A stretch of DNA of 24,818 bases from an uncultured Candidatus Peribacteria bacterium (lineage in GTDB: Bacteria; Patescibacteriota; Gracilibacteria; BD1-5; JAGOOR01), in assembly GCA_964560015.1 (NCBI GenBank), contig CAZLKD010000001.1:1-24818 (forward strand), given 5' to 3'. A model generated the notes under the pieces. The model was given only the letters and a program-made list of their open reading frames with translations. It ran no database searches and was not told the DNA's origin. A program made the position numbers and the translations under genes. This document shows positions 14,898-23,799 of this stretch, in pieces. Every line of letters starts with the position of its first letter. Position 1 is the first letter of the stretch.

Positions 14898-15902
14898 TTA
14901 AATATTGATGATAGGGTTTATGATACCGAGACCTGCTAATCCCGCAAGAAGTGCAAAGACACCAAGACCGATCACAACTATGCCTGCCGATTTGAAGAAA
15001 AGAGGTGCGTATCGAGAGTGAGCAAATCATGCTGATCCAAATGAGAGGAGTGCGAGCATAGGAAAGGTGCCGAGAGAGAAAGCGAGCATGATGAGTCCTC
15101 CGCTGATAAAAGACCCACTAGAGAGAGCTGAAATCTGCATGGATTGAGTAAACCCACACGGAAGAAAGAAAGTACTGATTCCGATAATGAGAGGTGTTAG
15201 CGTTTTATGTTCTATTCTCCTGAGAAACTGAAATATTCAGGCAGGGAGAGTGATACGTGATTGAGTGAGTATGCCTACGAGATTAGCACCAAGGAGCATC
15301 ATGACAAGTGCAGCAAATATGCCCAAAAGACTAGTAAAAAGAGGATTGATACCTATAGCCTGTCCAAGTATTCCAAGAATGCCTCATAGAAGGGCAAAGC
15401 CAACAATTCTCCCAACATGAAAGAGAATAAAATTCTTCCTATCACTCACTCCATCCTGCGACACTTTTGCTGATAAGGAGAGTACCAATCATCCCACCAC
15501 TGCCAAACAGCTCGATACAGAGGCAATAAGACCCAAGGTAAAGCTCGAAGCAGGTGTAACTTGGCCTCATATTCCAAAGTTGAGTATCCCTGATTTTTGT
15601 AAGAGGAAGAAGAGTATAAGTATGGCGAGCCCCAGAGGAAGAGCCTGCCAGATAATTTCTCAGTCCTTCTCTTTCATAACCCGATCAACCGAAAGAACGT
15701 AACCGTTGTGTTTGATTTTTTCATTCAGCATCTCTGCAATGTTCTCTAGGCTATTATCGAGCGTCGTCTCAAGTGTAATGGTTTTCCTTTTCAAATCGAC
15801 ATAAGTATTTTCTATACCTATCTGCTCATTAATGATATCTTCGAGCAGTATCTTACAGGCAGGACAGTGGGTACCGGAAACATGGAGTGTATATGATTGC
15901 AT
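14898..15902 (-). CDS. HMA domain fused to DsbD_2/sulfite exporter TauE-like membrane domain (334 aa)
   Basis: N-terminal GTHCPAC, membrane motifs SSCLAVVGG and LPCGFTQ; continuous in code 25. Confidence 0.87.
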
Positions 15903-15912
15903 AAATTATATC

Positions 15913-16203
15913 TTAATACCAATTAAATATTTTCAGTAAGATTAGTAGTCCTATTAAAGCATAGAAGATTTGATAAGGCACCATCCTAAATCCATACTTT
16001 GGATCCCGTTGGAAATGAATGAAATAATTGTATAGGTGACCAAGTTCATCAATTACAGCTACTCCGAGTATTACCAACAGCGTGTCCTTGATTACCAGCC
16101 CATAAAACATAACCGTAAAGCTCACTACATGCAAAATAATGTTTACTGTGCCTTTATGAAAATCAGTAAAAAAGAATTTTGAATTTTGTAAGAAAGTTTT
16201 CAT
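15913..16203 (-). CDS. Small membrane protein (96 aa)
   Basis: Complete hydrophobic ORF with H-x-G-x-x-N-x-x-x-H and ELGH; sits tightly between copA and the HMA gene. Confidence 0.75.
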   Translation of the reverse strand: MKTFLQNSKFFFTDFHKGTVNIILHVVSFTVMFYGLVIKDTLLVILGVAVIDELGHLYNYFIHFQRDPKYGFRMVPYQIFYALIGLLILLKIFNWY

Positions 16204-16209
16204 AGAGTC

Positions 16210-18492
16210 TTAAAGTTTTACATTCCTAAGCCGTAGAGAGTTGCTCACAACGGTAATGCTCTCAAACGCCATCAACGCTCCTGCAATAGCTGGACTCAGT
16301 GTCCATCAAAAATATGGATAGAGTATACCTGCAGCAATAGGAATACCTAGGGAATTATACCCGAAAGACCAGATAAGGTTTTGCCAGATCGTCCTGTTCG
16401 TTTTTCGTGCGAGATTGATGGCTTCTGCGACCTTGGCAATATCTCCTTTGAGAAGGACAATATCGGAACTCTCGATCGCAATGTCAGAACCATTGCTCAT
16501 AGAGATAGCCACATCCGCCTGAGCTAGGGCAGGGGCATCGTTCACACCATCACCAATCATAGCTACTTTCAATCCTCGCTTCTGTAAATCGGTAATGATC
16601 GTGAGTTTATCCTCTGGCTTCACATCGCAGAATACTTCATCGATACCGAGTTCACGCGCGACGGCTTCACCTGTTTTTTTATGATCGCCTGTCGCCATGA
16701 TAATCTTGAGACCGAGTTTCCTTAGTTTCTCGATTTCACTCTTTGCATCAGCTTTCACAGTATCGTGTATTTTTATAAGCGAGAGGATTTCTTTTTTGTT
16801 GGCGAGATAGATTTCTCTTCCACTTTCGAAATACGTACTCTCAAACTGATTTTTGATTTTCTCAGACGTACTTCCTGTCATCTCGGATACATAGGAGAGC
16901 GAGCCGAAGAAGTAAGTATTATTATCCCACTGTGCAGTGACGCCCTTTCATGGCAATTCTTTCAGCTCAGAAAGAGGAAGAGTATTTTTTTGACCGCTTT
17001 CAAGGGACCGGGCAATGCTTTCGGAGATAGGATGCTTCGAGGATCGTGCAATGCTGTATATCAGTGGATCAAAATTTGTATCTTTATCAGCTCAATTTGG
17101 AGCAAAAATACCCTCGACAGAGAGTGTGTTCTCAGTAAGCGTTCCTGTCTTATCAAATACTACTGCCTGAACCTGGGCAAGTTTCTCAAGGCTCTCTGCG
17201 TTTTTTATCAATATACCACGACGAGCACCAGCTCCGACGCCTGTGATGATAGCTGTTGGTGTAGCCAAGCCAAGCGAACAAGGACATGCAATAACAAGGA
17301 CTGCCATAGTGCACGAAAGAGCGAGTGCAATAGATCGAGACCAGCCAAGCGACGCAGGTCAGAAAAATAGCCAACAGAGGAGTGTTATGAGAGCAAGACC
17401 AATAACCACGTACACAAAAATGCCTGAGATCTTGTCTGCTATCCTCTCAATAGGAGCTTTTGAATTCTGGGCATTTTCAACGATTTGGATGATATGGGCA
17501 AGAGTTGTATTTTTACTGTCTTTCTCAACACAGATTTTGAGAAGACCGTGAAAATTCTGGGTCCCAGAAAATACCACATCATTAATTCCTTTATCCACTG
17601 GAATGGACTCTCAGGTGAGATGAGACTCATCGAGTGTGCTTGATCAGAAGATGATAGTACCATCAAGAGGTATCCTCTCGTTTGGCTTCACAACAATAAT
17701 GTCACCTATTTTTACTTCGTCGATAGCCACTTCTATTTCTTTGCCATCTCTCTCAACTATAGCTGATTTACTGGTAAGCTCGGCGAGTTTTTGCAGTGCT
17801 TCATTTGTTTTCTTCTTTGCTCGCGCTTCGAGAAACTGTCCGAGAGCGATAAGACCTATGACAACTATAACAACATCATAAAAATTTGACCGAACATCAA
17901 GATAGGGAGCGAGTGGTTTTTCAAAAGCTGTCACAGCAAATGAATAAACGAAAGCAACGATGGTGGAAATACCCACAAGGACATCCATATTTGCTGTGCC
18001 TGTTCGTAAAAATAACCATACAGCACGAATATATTTTCTTCCAATTCCAAAGAGCACAAACGAAGCAAAAATAGGCATCAGATGATGAAATGCCTCATAC
18101 CATGTCTCGGACATCTCACCAATTATATTATTCTGGGCCAAGACTTCCCACCCCATCATAAAAAATGAAAAGATGATCATTGGTACCACGAATTTCATCT
18201 CAAATGCTGTCTGTTCAGGGTTACCGTGATCGTGCATATCGTGAGAAGGTTTCTCTGAGTGTTTTATATGAGACATTTCTTCTTGTTCTACGAGTGTATA
18301 CCCAAGTGGCTTAATAGGAGCATTCAAGTCTTCTGTGGGGATTGTCTTGTCTGAAAAGATGACCGTTGCCTTTTCCGAGGAAAGACCAACTGAGCAAGAC
18401 TCCACTCCTGGAATTTTAGAAATTTTGTTTTGTATGAGAGATACACAGCTTGCACAATGCATACCGCTTATTTTGTAAATCTTCTTATCCAT
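16210..18492 (-). CDS. copA: P1B-type Cu-transporting ATPase (760 aa)
   Basis: GMHCASC, His-rich linker, LT(TGA)[33 protein letters not shown] and MAFES. Confidence 0.95.
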
Positions 18493-18509
18493 AAATTATT
18501 CTATTTTTA

Positions 18510-18530
18510 ACCTGTACCATAGGTATAGGT
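18510..18530. promoter_or_regulatory. Candidate CsoR operator upstream of copA
   Basis: Inverted repeat ACCTGTACC-ATA-GGTATAGGT (8/9 match), 17 nt upstream of the copA ATG; TACC/GGTA core is typical of CsoR-type sites. Confidence 0.55.
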
Positions 18531-18600
18531 AATTATAGGCATATACTATAAAAATCAAATCTCTTTTTTAGGTGTGCCATTTGTCCCATTTTCCTCCTAA

Positions 18601-18627
18601 ATGGTTCTAGACCCGTTAGGTCAACCA
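18601..18627 (+). pseudogene. Degenerate tRNA 3'-like fragment
   Basis: ATGG-TTCTAGA-CCCGT-TAGGTCA-A-CCA has T-arm/acceptor/CCA spacing and is followed by a terminator. Confidence 0.45.
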
Positions 18628-18634
18628 AAAAATC

Positions 18635-18660
18635 AAACCCCTCCTTTTAGGAGGGTTTTT
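18635..18660 (+). terminator. Intrinsic terminator (possibly bidirectional)
   Basis: CCCTCCT-TTT-AGGAGGG stem with a T tract downstream and an A-rich run upstream. Confidence 0.7.
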
Positions 18661-18682
18661 ATTTTTTAATTGAGTTATGTAG

Positions 18683-18800
18683 TGGGACTCGAATAGAGAG
18701 CGATCTCTGCTCGAAGATATGCCCACAGGCATATCTGTCCCGAGCCGTCTCCGGCAGCGAGTGAAACGAGCGAGAGGAAAGAATCCCTCATTCCCAACCA
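18683..18800 (+). other. 118-nt multi-hairpin GC-rich element ending in a tRNA-type 3' end with CCA
   Basis: Hairpins GAGC/GCTC, AGATATGCC/GGCATATCT and GCCG/CGGC; ends GAATCCCTCATTCCCAACCA. Confidence 0.55.
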
Positions 18801-18822
18801 TTACGTACATTAATGTTACATT

Positions 18823-18850
18823 GTGACCCTATTACCTAGGGTCATTTTTT
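18823..18850 (+). terminator. Intrinsic terminator homologous to 385-414
   Basis: TGACCCTA-TTACC-TAGGGTCA followed by 6 T. Confidence 0.8.
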
Positions 18851-18919
18851 AGTGGGCATCTTCCCAGGGTTTCCATTTCCTCCATTTTTTATATACTAAT
18901 AATACTTTAACCTTTTGTA

Positions 18920-21265
18920 ATGCTCGATTTTTGAATACTAGGCATGAATGCGAGGAACCTCCTCTACATAAAAAAATTTAATAATAAAAAATCGATTTCA
19001 CTTGCTGACAGTAAAATAAAGACCAAGACATATCTCTCAGCTCGTTGAGTCCCCTTTGCAGAAACATTTGCCGTCATACAATCAAAGGCAGACCTACAAA
19101 ATTGGAAATTCTCGAGCATCACTTCTGACCACTTTGTTATAAAACCGAATGAGGGAAGTAAAGGTAACGGCATACTCGTACTCGAGAGAAAAGGAAATAT
19201 TTTTTTTGATCAAGAGAGATCATACAATGAGTCAGAGCTGAGAGCTCATATGACGGATATATTAGATGGTGCTTTTTCTATTTCTGGAGGCTACGATACA
19301 GTCTTAATAGAAGAGAAACTCTTACCTGACGAGTCATTTCGACATTTTTGTCAGTATGGATTAGCAGATATCCGTGTCATCGTATTTAATCTCGTTCCTG
19401 TGGCAGCGATGGTGAGAATGCCTACAATGATTTCAGGATGAAGAGCTAATCTCGCTCAAGGTGGAGCTGGTTTTGGGATAGATGTCACAACAGGTGAAAT
19501 ACATTCATTTTTCCAACATAAGACACTCCATCATAACATATTCCCAGAGAAATATAGATTTCTCCGAGGGAAAAAAATAGGATATTGGAATGATATCCTG
19601 CTCTTCTCTTCTCAGATTCAGATATTTGCAAATCTAGGCTATCTCGCTCTCGACTGGGTCATCACCCCCACATGACCGAAATTACTCGAGCTCAACGCCC
19701 GAGCTGGTCTCGAAGTGCAAAACGTCAATGGCATCGCTCTCCGATCTCGGCTACGAAAAGTAGAAAATTTACGCATTACTGACCCTGTAAAATGAGTCGA
19801 AATTGCTCATTCTCTTTTTCAAGAAGCCCCGATTTTTCATATTCAGGAAAATAAAATCCTCTATACAAAACAAAAATGATCTATTCGTCAGTGAGAGCAT
19901 AAATATGAAAACATAGATATACAGGTTGATCTCCAAACCCCCTCAGCAAGAGGTAATGGAGATTTCATGGATCCAAGCAATGGAGATACTTATAAGATAG
20001 CATCGTACGATGGTGCAGAAATAACACTTCCCTCAATAGTATTCGATGGAACACTCTCACCTCAAACACTTATACTCGGTACTGCAGACATCAGAGATTA
20101 CTATTTGAAACCCTCCACATCACCACACTACGATGTAGTGTATCGATATACTACATCTCATTGGCCTCAGATCATACTCGATATCGATGAAAATCTCTAC
20201 AAATTAAGCAAAAGGGTCAACCTCTCTTATTTCCTCAAGCCAACTAATTATTATCAAGAACTCGACACTTTTATCTCTGCACAAGGCCTCTATAATCCTA
20301 TCTTTCAGTATGATTTTCCAGAAAAAATATTTTTTGAAAAATGTAGTGCTGATATAAAAGAACTCCGCGCATCCTTGATAAAAATGGGCGCCGAATATAC
20401 CACTCTGGCTCAGATATTCTGAGAAAAACTAACGGAAATAGAGTTCAAGTGTGAGCTCCTCAGATGATACTCTCGAGAGAATCCAGCCATCATACATGAT
20501 GCAAATAATGCCCTCTTTGGCGAACTCGATGATACAATCATGGCACTTGCTCAGGAGAAAGTCCTGACACTGAGCGACGTCCAAAAAAACCAAAAGAAAG
20601 TCAGAGGGAAACTCCTCTCTCCGGATGAAATTTTTGAGGGAGTGACACAATATTGCCGAGAACACAATTTCTCTGATATACCTGTTGCATTTCGAGATAA
20701 AAACTTTGCACGCATATCCATCTCATATGGAAAACGTATACGGATCAACCTGTCAAAAAATGCACGCATATACGCAAGAGAGCTCCCCGCTATTCTCGCC
20801 CACGAGATATGAGTGCATCTCCAGAGGCATCTCTCGTGACAATCTGCTGGACTAAAAATATTTCAGTATTGAACTGGATTTTATATTCAAGACGAGGAAT
20901 GACTCGCTATCTATGAATCGCTCAAACACCTTCCAGAAGGATATGAAAAAAATGCTATGTATATCAAATACTACCTCGCTTTTACTGCAAAAACGATGAA
21001 TTTTTCTGATTTGGCACGTCTCATGCAGAGCCTCTATCCAGAAAAATCACAAGAACAAATTTTCTCAGATGCATGTCGTGTAAAACGAGGCATCAAACAC
21101 ACACAAAGAACTTGAATCCTGTGATATATGAAGGATACAATTTACCTCCCTGGATACCTGCGATTAAAAAAATGGATAGAGTCAGGAGAGGACCCCTATA
21201 TGCTCTTCCAGGCAAAAATAAAAATAGCTGATATACCTCTCGTCAAGCCATTTTTTAATTCTTAA
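18920..21265 (+). CDS. Fusion of alpha-L-glutamate-ligase-like (ATPgrasp_ST) ATP-grasp, degenerate retropepsin-like domain and DUF1704/MATCAP-like metallopeptidase (781 aa)
   Basis: GILGMNARNL, VIKPNEGSKGNGI, ADIRVI, ANLAQGG, LELNARAGL; then HEI(TGA)VH at 20801-20818, EE(TGA)LA at 20894-20908, RVKRG and KDTIYLPG. One continuous frame to TAA 21263-21265. Confidence 0.88.
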
Positions 21266-21275
21266 ATCATTCTAC

Positions 21276-22792
21276 ATGAAAAAAATAGCTCTCCTACTAT
21301 CCCTTTTCTCAATTATATGATCTTCTTGGGCTCAAGAAATACCAAAAAATAATGTAGATACAATTACTAGCTGTTCGTCCTCAAAGGCGATAAGCAAGTA
21401 CGACAAGAAACCTCTCGTGAGTATTTCGTAACTCCGTGAGATACGAGTATTGATATACCAAAAAAGGTAATCTACACTCTCAAAAAAAATAATAAAAAAG
21501 TTGAAATAGTTTCTCGAGAAAAATATACAATTTATTTTGATGTACCAGGTGACATGATACTAACAGCGGAGGTACAGTATGGTGATAATTGTCAGACAAC
21601 CCTCTCCAAGGATATAAAGGTATTCCCTTACGCAATCGCCTACATCGGTGACAAAAATTCAGTAAAAACACCGGCAACAGATGCCGATACTCCTGGCTTT
21701 GTCGCAGATACGTTGAAAAAACGAAACATACTTTTCTATGAGCTCACTCCTCCCCCATCACAAGCATCTATTTCGTTTCAGGAATTCGATGATTTTATAA
21801 CGAAAAACATCAAGACTATTGAAGATAGCGATGTCATTATCATTAACTCTGTCAATTTTTTATCTCTTTTTGATTCTCTCGCAAAAATCGTCAACATATC
21901 CGATATAAAATCTCTTTCATCAAAGCACATATTTGTCATTTCAGATACCAACGAGTCTTTTCTCGCAAAAATTCTTGGACAATCTATAGGACATCTCGGT
22001 ATTTCAGGGGTTTCGCTCGTTCAACCCTCGGCCCTGTTTGAATTGTTACTGCAGATTACTCCCGATAATCTGACTTTTGGGAAAATGGTATCCTACTCAA
22101 CAGAGACATTTTCTTATTCACTTTCTCGATTTCTTGAATTTCTCCTCTACTTTGGTTTTTGATATAGCTTTCTGTGATTGCTTCTCAAGGTCAGCATAGT
22201 CGTACTCGTGCTCAACTTCCTCAAACAAGTCATCTGAGTGCATATATTTAGCATCTATAACCCCCTCTTTTTGGCTCTTTGTTTTGCAATTTTTGGTATC
22301 GGACTCACTTCGATATTCCTCTTTATTGCTTTTCTTTCGACCCGTATTATCAATCTCATCACAACACATCTACCTCTTCTCTATAATACACGGAGGTCCC
22401 TCCTCATAACACTTTATGTCCTCTTATCATTGATTTTTCTCGGTCTAGATATCATATTCCATATCGAGCTGGTCGATTACGATATATTTGCAAATATATT
22501 TAGCATATTTCCATTTCTATTTCTCATCATGGTAGCTGATAAAATATTTCATGAGGATATCAATATATGGAGTCGACCAGGTTTCATATCATTTGTTCAA
22601 TTCATCATCATATCGCTGGTAACATACAGCATTTTATCTTCTGCAAATTTGCAAGAATTTTTGATTTCTTACCCCGATTCCCTCTTCGCGATTCTTATAC
22701 TGAATTTCCTCATTGGCAGATACACTGGACTCCAACTTTTCGAGTATATACGTTTCACGCCTCTCCTAAAAAAACTCCAAGAAGAAGAATAG
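21276..22792 (+). CDS. Signal peptide, extracellular domain and 7TM (7TM_transglut-like) membrane protein; apparent 1-nt frameshift at ~21370-21428
   Basis: MKKIALLL...WAQE signal-like start in one frame (stop 21429-21431). The main frame opens after TAG 21368-21370 and runs to TAG 22790-22792 with the C-terminal NFLIGRYTGLQLFEYIRF motif. Confidence 0.75.
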
Positions 22793-22815: not shown

Positions 22816-23799
22816 ATGCGTCCCATGAATTACTTTTCGATATCGTCCCAGCTTTTGATAGAAGAGGCACAAAAATTCTCACTAAAAACAGAAATACTCG
22901 TCCCAGAAAAAAACCTTTTTATTATTTCACATCAAAATAAATCTGTGATGTTTAAAAGTGTAGATTTTTGAGAGAATTCTTTTCTTTGAGCCAGAATAGC
23001 AGACGATAAAGAGCTCACCTATGTGGTACTCGATCGTTTGGGATACCCTATTGCTTCGACAGTATATCTCGATGCAAAAGACTTCACTTCTACAGGCCTT
23101 GAAAATATACAAATACCTCCTTTCCCTCTTATTATCAAACCTATTGATGAAGCACATGGAAATGGAGTAATGATGAATATTAATAATAAGTTAGAATTGG
23201 AGCAAAAGCTCCATCAATCATTTCGAGCATACCCTCGTTTGATAATCCAGAGGCAAATCACTGGAAAAGAATTTCGCGTCCTCGTCTGTAAAAAGTCTAT
23301 TATCCTCGCCTTATTTCGTCATCCGCCTGTTATAAGGGGAGATGGTATATCAACTATTCTGTCGCTTATTAAAAAAGAAAATTCGACCCATCCTCTTCGC
23401 GGTGAGTGATACAATAAACCTCTCGGACTTATCAAAGTAGACGATGAGCTCCAAAATCATATAGCAAAGTATTGATATATCCTTGAGAATGTTCTCGAGT
23501 CTGGGAAAACTCTAGAGCTTCGAGGAAACTCTAACCTATGAACTGGAGGAACTATAGAAGAAATTACTGATATTCTTCATCCATCAATAAAGAATATGTG
23601 TCTTCATATTGCTGATTTTTTAAAGCTGGGCATCTGTGGTATCGATATTATGTCGACAGATCCGACACTTCCCCTTGTTGAGACTGGGGGTATTGTCTTG
23701 GAGGTGAATGCATCCCCAGGTATTGGGTGAGATCGTGAGCTCACCTCAGTTAATACGGCACAAGAGATACTCAAATGTGTTTTTGATTTACCTCACTAA
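22816..23799 (+). CDS. Stand-alone cyanophycin-synthetase/GshF-like ATP-grasp ligase (327 aa)
   Basis: DDKELT, IIKPIDEAHGNGV, GKEFRVLV, P.IRGDG.STI, SNL(TGA)TGG, CGIDI, LEVNASPG. Confidence 0.85.

Follow-up and report, generated by a model that had tools for sequence, protein, structure and literature searches.

The analysed window, a stretch of 24,818 nucleotides (nt) from an uncultured Candidatus Peribacteria bacterium, encodes on its forward strand (18920 to 21265) an enzyme of 781 amino acids (aa), in which an ATP-grasp ligase, a catalytically decayed retropepsin-type domain and a MATCAP-type metallopeptidase follow each other in a single polypeptide. The gene is a variant, from the Candidate Phyla Radiation (CPR), of the Rlo system of Pseudomonas and of the RimK-RimB ligase-peptidase systems, not a new category, since the fusion is widespread, is paired with a gene for a 7TM_transglut membrane protein, and also exists in split versions. 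The reading that we tentatively favour, with a probability a little short of even, is a cycle of addition and trimming on a C-terminal carboxylate, in which the ligase would be the writer, the MATCAP-type domain the eraser and the tail of the neighbouring seven-transmembrane (7TM) protein the leading candidate for the acceptor.

Under translation table 25, in which TGA is read as glycine, positions 18920 to 21265 form a single frame from ATG to TAA with 15 in-frame TGA codons, whereas only fragments of 63-151 aa are obtained under table 11, so the original prediction was right that this frame is invisible in code 11. When the protein was aligned with 51 full-length homologues, 10 of the 15 TGA positions fell in columns occupied in relatives by glycine, or by tryptophan where a database had called the gene under code 4, thus justifying the reading of TGA as glycine. 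Among the TGA-encoded glycines in conserved columns are G661 of the EEGLA motif in the peptidase (also a glycine in human MATCAP), G252 beside the E-x-N motif of the ligase, and G640 and G651. Read-through of TGA was likewise required by all the other long genes of the window. The gene was found without a single difference in contigs from three other studies, which bridge both domain junctions, and therefore the frame is not an accident of assembly; moreover, standard-code relatives have an uninterrupted equivalent frame of about 800 aa, and neither in other populations nor in relatives are the domains divided by a stop. An apparent split in one locus (L005), with a 363-aa ATP-grasp gene followed by a 402-aa MATCAP gene, was rejected as a true gene boundary and attributed to a frameshift, because the two frames overlap and the break lies inside the middle domain. 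The closest named homologues of the protein belong to Candidatus Gracilibacteria, followed by Absconditabacteria/SR1, and the source genome, with 0.97 Mb in 154 contigs at a completeness of 82%, is a small one. The AlphaFold model of the full-length protein had a mean predicted local distance difference test value (pLDDT) of 85.

The ligase domain (residues 1-300; 18920 to 19819) matched the ATPgrasp_ST family (PF14397) over residues 12-283, with an E-value of 4e-52 and 177.4 bits against a cut-off of 31.4, covering positions 2-278 of the 278 in the profile. The residues K75, E131-E132, D150, R166, D245, E257-x-N259 (E257-L-N259 in the window protein, 19688 to 19696) and R261 were invariant in the 51 homologues. 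From general knowledge of the fold, we take D245 and E257-x-N259 to be the Mg/ATP-binding triad of ATP-grasp enzymes, and K75, a lysine of the central domain, is presumably also among the ATP/Mg-binding residues, as in the superfamily at large. The score with the TIGR02291 model for alpha-L-glutamate ligase-like proteins was 206.8 bits against a cut-off of 314.2, as corresponds to a relative and not to an equivalog. In a structure search with the AlphaFold model, the nearest folds were those of RimK (including the RimK-RpsF complex), ArgX/LysX and CphA1, with an identity to RimK of 18-21% in the fold matches, whereas the TTL model (PF03133) gave no match at E<=0.1 in a Pfam search with the 781-aa protein. 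Given these nearest folds, the ligase is of the RimK/RloC kind, that of the C-terminal alpha-amino-acid ligases, and is not a relative of tubulin tyrosine ligase. The parallel drawn originally with the tubulin TTL/MATCAP pair is consequently no more than an analogy for the ligase half; the peptidase half is homologous to MATCAP.

The metallopeptidase domain (residues 421-781; 20180 to 21262) is of the MATCAP/DUF1704 type, resembling the QEGLA proteins of TIGR02421. PF08014 matched residues 450-779 with an E-value of 5e-22 and 78.8 bits against a cut-off of 27, and the TIGR02421 model reached 91 bits against a cut-off of 338.65, the motif of the window protein being EEGLA and not QEGLA. Among solved structures, searching by sequence brought up human MATCAP alone (phmmer to 7z5g, E 8e-8), and Foldseek matched the same entry with an E-value of 1.5e-10 and a template modelling score by target of 0.62-0.71. 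The motif H628-E-I-G-V-H633 (20801 to 20818), of the form HExxxH, which contains metal ligands and the catalytic glutamate, aligned with HEIGTH of human MATCAP, and E659-E-G-L-A663 (20894 to 20908), the EEG motif of the third metal ligand, aligned with the human EEGLA. Within these motifs, H628, E629, H633, E659, E660 and A663 were invariant in the 51 homologues. In human TMCP1/MATCAP, the catalytic E281 and the EEG metal ligand E316 are each needed for activity (PMC10499314), and the counterparts of both are conserved in the window protein. Acting as sequential carboxypeptidases, MATCAP/TMCP enzymes take off C-terminal tyrosine and glutamate and shorten polyglutamate chains, and they are sensitive to a penultimate glutamate (PMC10499314). 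From its motifs, the domain of the window protein is predicted to be a metallocarboxypeptidase with an intact catalytic site. The intact ATPgrasp_ST ligase and the C-terminal zincin with HEIGVH and EEGLA had both been recognised correctly in the original prediction, as the two Pfam matches and the invariant motifs confirm.

The two-domain architecture had to be corrected to three, as the segment between both family models (residues ~301-420; 19820 to 20179) had been overlooked. Residues ~300-420 are conserved although they lie outside both models, and an AlphaFold2 model of this segment alone had a pLDDT of 81.5. In an exhaustive structure search by VIA-align, the top match was 2pma_B (Lpg0085/DUF785; Z 7.8, root-mean-square deviation 3.3, 85 residues aligned), the second was 9g59_B (RloA2 of Pseudomonas aeruginosa; Z 7.3, deviation 3.3, 87 residues aligned), and retroviral proteases and pepsin lobes came after them; these Z values are modest on their own. 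With Foldseek, all the top rows were aspartic peptidases, at E-values of about 6e-3. A split relative (L002) encodes a 421-aa ATPgrasp_ST protein whose last ~120 residues (...ARIDTGESLGLID...IGRRDLRGYLIDP) bear a retropepsin signature and gave weak matches to Asp_protease_2 and PF05618, and the split relative P0149 matched PF05618 weakly, with an E-value of 0.016. A standard-code fusion (L008) matched both the profile of the window clade (1e-8) and the DTG-bearing domain of L002 (1e-17) over the same residues, and when the middle domain was aligned by hhalign to the DTG-bearing domain of P0149 the register was correct, with a probability of only 31%. Identification from sequence only failed, as PF05618 gave no match at E<=10 in the 40 middle domains scanned, in which other Pfam families produced scattered chance matches, and a profile search of PDB sequences with the middle domain returned nothing; the assignment rests on the fold search together with the transitive link through hidden Markov models (HMM).

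At the position of the retropepsin catalytic signature, located by alignment to RIDTGE/RIDTGA of the split relatives, the window protein has V336-D-L-Q-T340 (19925 to 19939). The consensus of its clade at this position is VDLNK, with the aspartate conserved in fewer than 90%. A D-T/S-G sequence was kept in all four split ligase-retropepsin genes seen (DTGE, DTGA, DTGV and DTGT) but in only 3 of 50 diverse fusions, the other 47 having lost it. On the evidence of the modelled fold, the middle domain is a retropepsin-like beta-barrel of the RimB/RloA family with a decayed catalytic site, and because D-T/S-G is lost at its signature the domain order is read as ligase, dead retropepsin and metallopeptidase.

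Ten bases past the stop of the fusion gene, an ATG at 21276 opens the gene for an RloB-like membrane protein (21276 to 22792, forward strand), with a signal peptide, a beta-rich extracellular part, a 7TM_transglut domain and a cytoplasmic tail. The 7TM protein matched PF14402 (7TM_transglut) with 33.6 bits against a cut-off of 25, and the NCBIfam model of RloB (NF052267) with 18.8 bits against 900. Its outer part had no Pfam match, a transglutaminase match being also absent from the window protein, and in standard-code relatives this part is made of PKD domains. As an N-terminal signal peptide and seven transmembrane helices were predicted for it, the C-terminal tail is placed by this topology in the cytoplasm, the same compartment as the fusion enzyme, which is located there because neither a signal peptide nor a transmembrane segment was predicted in it. 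An almost invariant juxtamembrane motif, G[KR]WTGLRLxEYxRFR (GRYTGLQLFEYIRF in the window), is followed in these 7TM proteins by about ten residues to the end. The window protein terminates in ...LLKKLQEEE, the last three glutamates (22781 to 22789) being a candidate acceptor for the ligase and a candidate end-point of trimming; the ending KKLQEEE is identical in the closest recoded relative with genomic context (L118), and a further relative (L120) ends in ...NEEEE.

The distribution of these genes and of the tail was analysed in a sample of 401 genomes drawn evenly from the phylum. A MATCAP-family gene was found in 76 of them and a 7TM_transglut gene in 129, with both present in 70 of the 76, whereas only 6 of the 272 genomes without a 7TM gene had a MATCAP match, those matches being weak. 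Tails were obtained from 110 further genomes of the sample by HMM-anchored extraction, with TGA read as stop because those 7TM genes have no in-frame TGA. The 7TM protein ended in -EE or longer in 16 of 23 genomes with the fused enzyme, in 3 of 36 with a separate MATCAP gene (one of these being probably a frameshifted fusion) and in none of 52 in which no MATCAP was found. Counted by taxonomic family, the tail was present in 10 of 26 versus 0 of 18 (Fisher p 0.003).

Docking of the ligase on the 7TM protein is weakly suggested by complex prediction. For a standard-code orthologous pair (L012), residues 1-440 of the enzyme, comprising ligase and retropepsin domains, and residues 285-512 of the 7TM protein gave a score of 0.56, the best of three controls being 0.00. 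The runs agreed in at least 88% of contacts, and the pLDDT of the partners was at least 74. Among 80 solved complexes, 58 attain the mark for such predictions, and among 110 mismatched pairs 2 do so; scores that reached the mark without exceeding 0.60 were those of only 7 of the 80 solved complexes and of both passing mismatches.

The 7TM gene is interrupted in this assembly. The frame opened by the ATG at 21276, that of a textbook signal peptide, closes at 21429-21431, and the frame of the 7TM part is open from 21371, with its first in-frame start codon, an ATG, at 21554 (412 aa). In contigs of three independent studies, position 21373 is followed by ten further bases (TTCTTACGCT), and with these inserted the gene reads through to 508 aa, the size of its homologues, an intact 508-aa orthologue being present in L118. 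The 10-nt deletion may be a real variant or an assembly error, since the possible source-sample run gives no coverage at 21373. A 156-aa open reading frame under table 25 on the reverse strand (21297-21767), antisense to the start of the 7TM gene and without any family match, is probably spurious.

A second ATP-grasp ligase of 327 aa (22816 to 23799, forward strand) starts 24 nt past the stop of the 7TM gene. Its best match was the ATP-grasp (G-domain) region of cyanophycin synthetase, followed by GshB-like and RimK-like proteins. An orthologue directly follows the 7TM gene in L118 and L120, where the order of fusion, 7TM gene and second ligase is kept with 3-nt spacers. In seven standard-code Patescibacteria (L006, L007, L008, L012, L013, L016 and L017) the fusion is instead directly preceded by the 7TM gene, split arrangements occur in L002, L009, L010 and L011, and in every locus examined the fusion or MATCAP gene and the 7TM gene were adjacent or overlapping. 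Many loci, L008, L009 and L010 among them, contain two to four extra ATP-grasp genes.

More than 120 homologues of 760-830 aa have both Pfam domains, and the fusion was found in hundreds of Gracilibacteria and Absconditabacteria as well as in other Patescibacteria. The fusion is therefore not rare but widespread, and it is already annotated automatically in databases, with labels that name domains only (DUF1704 / tyrosine-phenylalanine carboxypeptidase domain-containing protein). The statement that bacterial DUF1704 genes often neighbour ATP-grasp genes was borne out in the loci examined of stand-alone MATCAP/DUF1704 genes. An exhaustive profile search yielded 4,463 MATCAP-family clusters, stand-alone proteins being of ~350 aa and fused ones of ~780-860 aa, whereas PF08014 and PF14402 had no matches in 14 named control genomes. 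The ATP-grasp and 7TM families concerned were reportedly defined by Iyer et al. in 2009. A literature search for the ATP-grasp-DUF1704/MATCAP fusion, including any prior characterisation, found no paper, the results for single subjects being tubulin papers and incidental mentions. Two further architectures of the family were noted: an 891-aa protein (P0198) with an N-terminal MATCAP and a C-terminal ATP-grasp_3 domain, an independent ligase-peptidase fusion in reverse order, and five bacterial STAND NB-ARC plus TPR proteins of 1,090-1,275 aa (P0191, P0199, P0210, P0211 and P0283) with a C-terminal MATCAP and with TIR, EAD11 or DUF4062 at their N-termini, an architecture resembling those of conflict or immunity proteins.

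The closest studied system, missing from the original prediction, is the rlo operon of P. aeruginosa, which encodes the secreted retropepsin RloA, the 7TM/inactive-transglutaminase protein RloB and the ATP-grasp protein RloC (Lormand et al., 2025, PMC11957051, also PMC12239564). RloA cleaves polyglutamate, and polyE peptides or polyglutamylated proteins have been proposed as its physiological substrate; deletion of rloB or rloC relieves the harm that comes from losing the three RloA peptidases, and rlo mutants show cell-shape, envelope and vesicle phenotypes (PMC11957051). Both systems share, in one gene cluster, an ATPgrasp_ST/TIGR02291-type ligase (RloC), a 7TM_transglut protein (RloB) and a RimB/RloA-type retropepsin module, together with a chemistry oriented to glutamate and opposed roles of peptidase and ligase, the latter shown genetically in Pseudomonas. 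In contrast, the retropepsin of the window is fused to the ligase, cytoplasmic and decayed, whereas RloA is secreted and active; the window protein adds a fused MATCAP-type metallocarboxypeptidase, absent from rlo, and its cassette an extra ligase similar to cyanophycin synthetase; and the outer part of the 7TM protein is made of PKD domains in standard-code relatives, versus the inactive transglutaminase of RloB.

The RimK-RimB system also has a cytoplasmic ATP-grasp alpha-L-glutamate ligase, which extends a protein ending in -EE (bS6/RpsF), and a cytoplasmic partner of the retropepsin type, RimB, which binds and regulates RimK and trims the glutamate tail. However, RimK belongs to another ligase subfamily, the trimming enzyme of the window is a metallocarboxypeptidase, and the window system is partnered with a membrane protein. 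With the tubulin cycle (TTL/TTLL plus MATCAP/TMCP and CCP) the window enzyme shares the combination of an ATP-grasp writer and a MATCAP-family eraser and a trimmed acidic tail that ends in -EE, and its peptidase is a true homologue, with equal HExxxH/EEG residues and fold. The differences are that the ligase is not of the TTL family, that tubulin is absent, that the microtubule-binding elements of MATCAP are irrelevant in the window protein and that writer and eraser are in one polypeptide. Proteobacterial TIGR02421 and TIGR02291 proteins correspond to the best NCBIfam models for the peptidase and ligase halves, but both scores are far under the equivalog cut-offs, the motif is EEGLA and the window protein is fused. 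Finally, LysX/ArgX ligate to the C-terminal glutamate of a dedicated protein, LysW, by ATP-grasp chemistry, and the G domain of CphA, which the second ligase resembles, elongates a poly-amino-acid primer at its C-terminus; unlike in these systems, the window has no carrier-protein gene, biosynthetic pathway genes or M or N domains of CphA.

According to the cycle that we favour, the RimK/RloC-type domain would spend ATP on joining amino acids, most probably glutamate, to a free C-terminal carboxylate, the MATCAP-type domain would remove the added residues one by one, and the length of the chain would be set by the balance of both activities. The decayed retropepsin may act as a scaffold, dimerisation or tail-binding module, and in the fusions the metallopeptidase appears to replace the aspartic peptidases RimB/RloA in their job. 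As acceptor, the neighbouring signal-peptide/7TM protein would be the most likely candidate, through its cytoplasmic -EEE end, and the chain may be made longer or more varied by the second ligase, the one that resembles cyanophycin synthetase. The fact that RimK, LysX/ArgX and CphA1 all extend a C-terminal carboxylate was counted in favour of this cycle, as were the partnership of MATCAP and 7TM genes, the existence of the reverse-order fusion P0198 and the genetics of the rlo operon. In addition, alpha-tubulin ends in -EE once MATCAP has acted on it, and the activity of TMCPs is sensitive to a glutamate in the penultimate position (PMC10499314); RimK, in its turn, extends S6 at an acidic -EE end like that of the 7TM tail. 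Reversible addition and removal at a C-terminus, as proposed from the beginning, is thus kept as the best reading, with both sites conserved in one polypeptide and polymer synthesis retained as its rival, and the 7TM neighbour, suggested then as substrate, gains support from a conserved -EE(E) end that tracks MATCAP across genomes. The substrate, the added amino acid and the physiological role we infer; the role would probably lie in the envelope or in membrane signalling, as for Rlo.

Several observations weigh against this cycle. In 7 of the 23 fusion genomes (families f47 and f33 and one genome of f7) the 7TM protein ends in KSS, KSA, KSH, HRA or NLD, and therefore its tail is not the sole or obligatory acceptor. 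Six of the ten families with the -EE end belong to one class, which reduces the independent events to perhaps five lineages, and the score of the L012 complex falls in the weak band. The middle domain of the window protein is net acidic (-5), which argues against its binding polyglutamate as RloA does, a role that was dropped for this reason. Also, the ligase scores under the TIGR02291 cut-off, and the name of its Pfam family ties ATPgrasp_ST to sugar-transfer operons. Lastly, should the 10-nt deletion in the 7TM gene prove genuine, this population may carry a crippled system.

A second explanation, which we consider possible but rather unlikely, is that the product of the two ligases is a free short peptide or poly-alpha-amino-acid (polyglutamate or a mixed chain, similar to cyanophycin), which would be exported or anchored by the 7TM protein and shortened or recycled by the MATCAP domain, the protein tail itself being unmodified. 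RimK also makes free poly-alpha-L-glutamate, the polyE peptides proposed as one form of the RloA substrate would be of this kind, the similarity of the second ligase to the G domain of cyanophycin synthetase and the extra ATP-grasp genes of many loci would suit polymer building, and some families with the fusion lack the -EE tail. However, a free polymer leaves the clade-conserved -EE(E) end, confined to MATCAP-bearing genomes, without explanation, and if the enzyme that makes an exported polymer were joined to a cytoplasmic exopeptidase, a futile cycle would result unless regulation were tight; neither has transport been demonstrated as a function of 7TM_transglut proteins.

The decoration of an envelope glycan or muropeptide, in which the ligase would amidate a surface polysaccharide or a muropeptide precursor and the peptidase would edit it, appears improbable. 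The nearest solved ligases work on peptide C-termini and MATCAP enzymes are carboxypeptidases of proteins or peptides, although the ligase family is called sugar-transfer associated in Pfam and the rlo phenotypes in cell shape, envelope and vesicles would fit such a role; glycosyltransferase genes follow the cassette in L002 but are absent beside those of the window, L118 and L120. An artefact of TGA read-through or a decaying gene, that is, separate genes or a pseudogene with an inactive peptidase, to which the fifteen stops under table 11 and the frameshifted 7TM gene might point, is effectively excluded by the glycines of relatives at TGA columns (invariant motif glycines included), the read-through needed by the other long genes of the window, the uninterrupted standard-code frames, the identical sequence in three other studies, the invariance of both catalytic motifs and the origin of the L005 split in a frameshift within the middle domain.

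Some additional features were observed around these genes. A spacer of 427 nt, in which there are two terminator-like hairpins (18639-18655 and 18823-18845), directly precedes the fusion in the window; a promoter scan of the window was near chance (16 found versus 18.7 expected) and was not used. When the upstream region of the window (14898-18919) was compared with that of L118 (1-5790), the metal-homeostasis genes (HMA-DsbD_2 and a P-type ATPase) were found to be shared, and in place of the spacer L118 has an extracytoplasmic function (ECF) sigma factor gene and a 490-aa gene directly before the fusion. An expanded cassette is present in an Absconditabacteria-like relative (L119, 6001-14448), comprising the fusion, a 510-aa second MATCAP-like gene, an AstE/AspA-type (M14-like) gene, a GSH-S-like ATP-grasp gene, an unknown gene of 349 aa and then the 7TM gene. 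A divergent MATCAP paralogue of 491 aa, convergent with the fusion gene, was detected in L006 (9347-10819, reverse strand) and also in G076, of family f47; the f47 genomes with this paralogue are also bearers of the fusion whose 7TM tail does not end in glutamate. In unrelated metagenome contigs (L003, 2889-6083, and L004) a stand-alone MATCAP gene adjoins an Hsp70-family gene, and the parallel with the accessory Hsp70 cassette located 12 kb upstream in the window is probably a coincidence.

Reversible addition of amino acids to a C-terminus is well understood only for tubulin and for the bacterial ribosomal protein S6. In the window, a ligase and an eraser are combined in one polypeptide, beside a membrane protein whose encoded end resembles the trimmed state, and the 7TM tail constitutes a concrete hypothesis for the substrate of Rlo-like systems, which in Pseudomonas affect antibiotic tolerance, biofilm and cell shape. 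MATCAP-type peptidases, known only from the tubulin field, commonly partner ATP-grasp ligases in bacteria, and roughly one in five of the Patescibacteria genomes sampled encodes them, although such genomes leave little room for dispensable genes. A further step, specific but doubtful, would be that a single CPR enzyme writes and erases a short chain of glutamate, or of another amino acid, on the -EE end of a signal-peptide/PKD/7TM protein, as a code on the tail of a membrane receptor that would tune a transmembrane signal or a contact response in these episymbiotic cells; it would then be a prokaryotic counterpart of the tubulin tyrosination/glutamylation cycle and possibly the evolutionary source of its MATCAP half.

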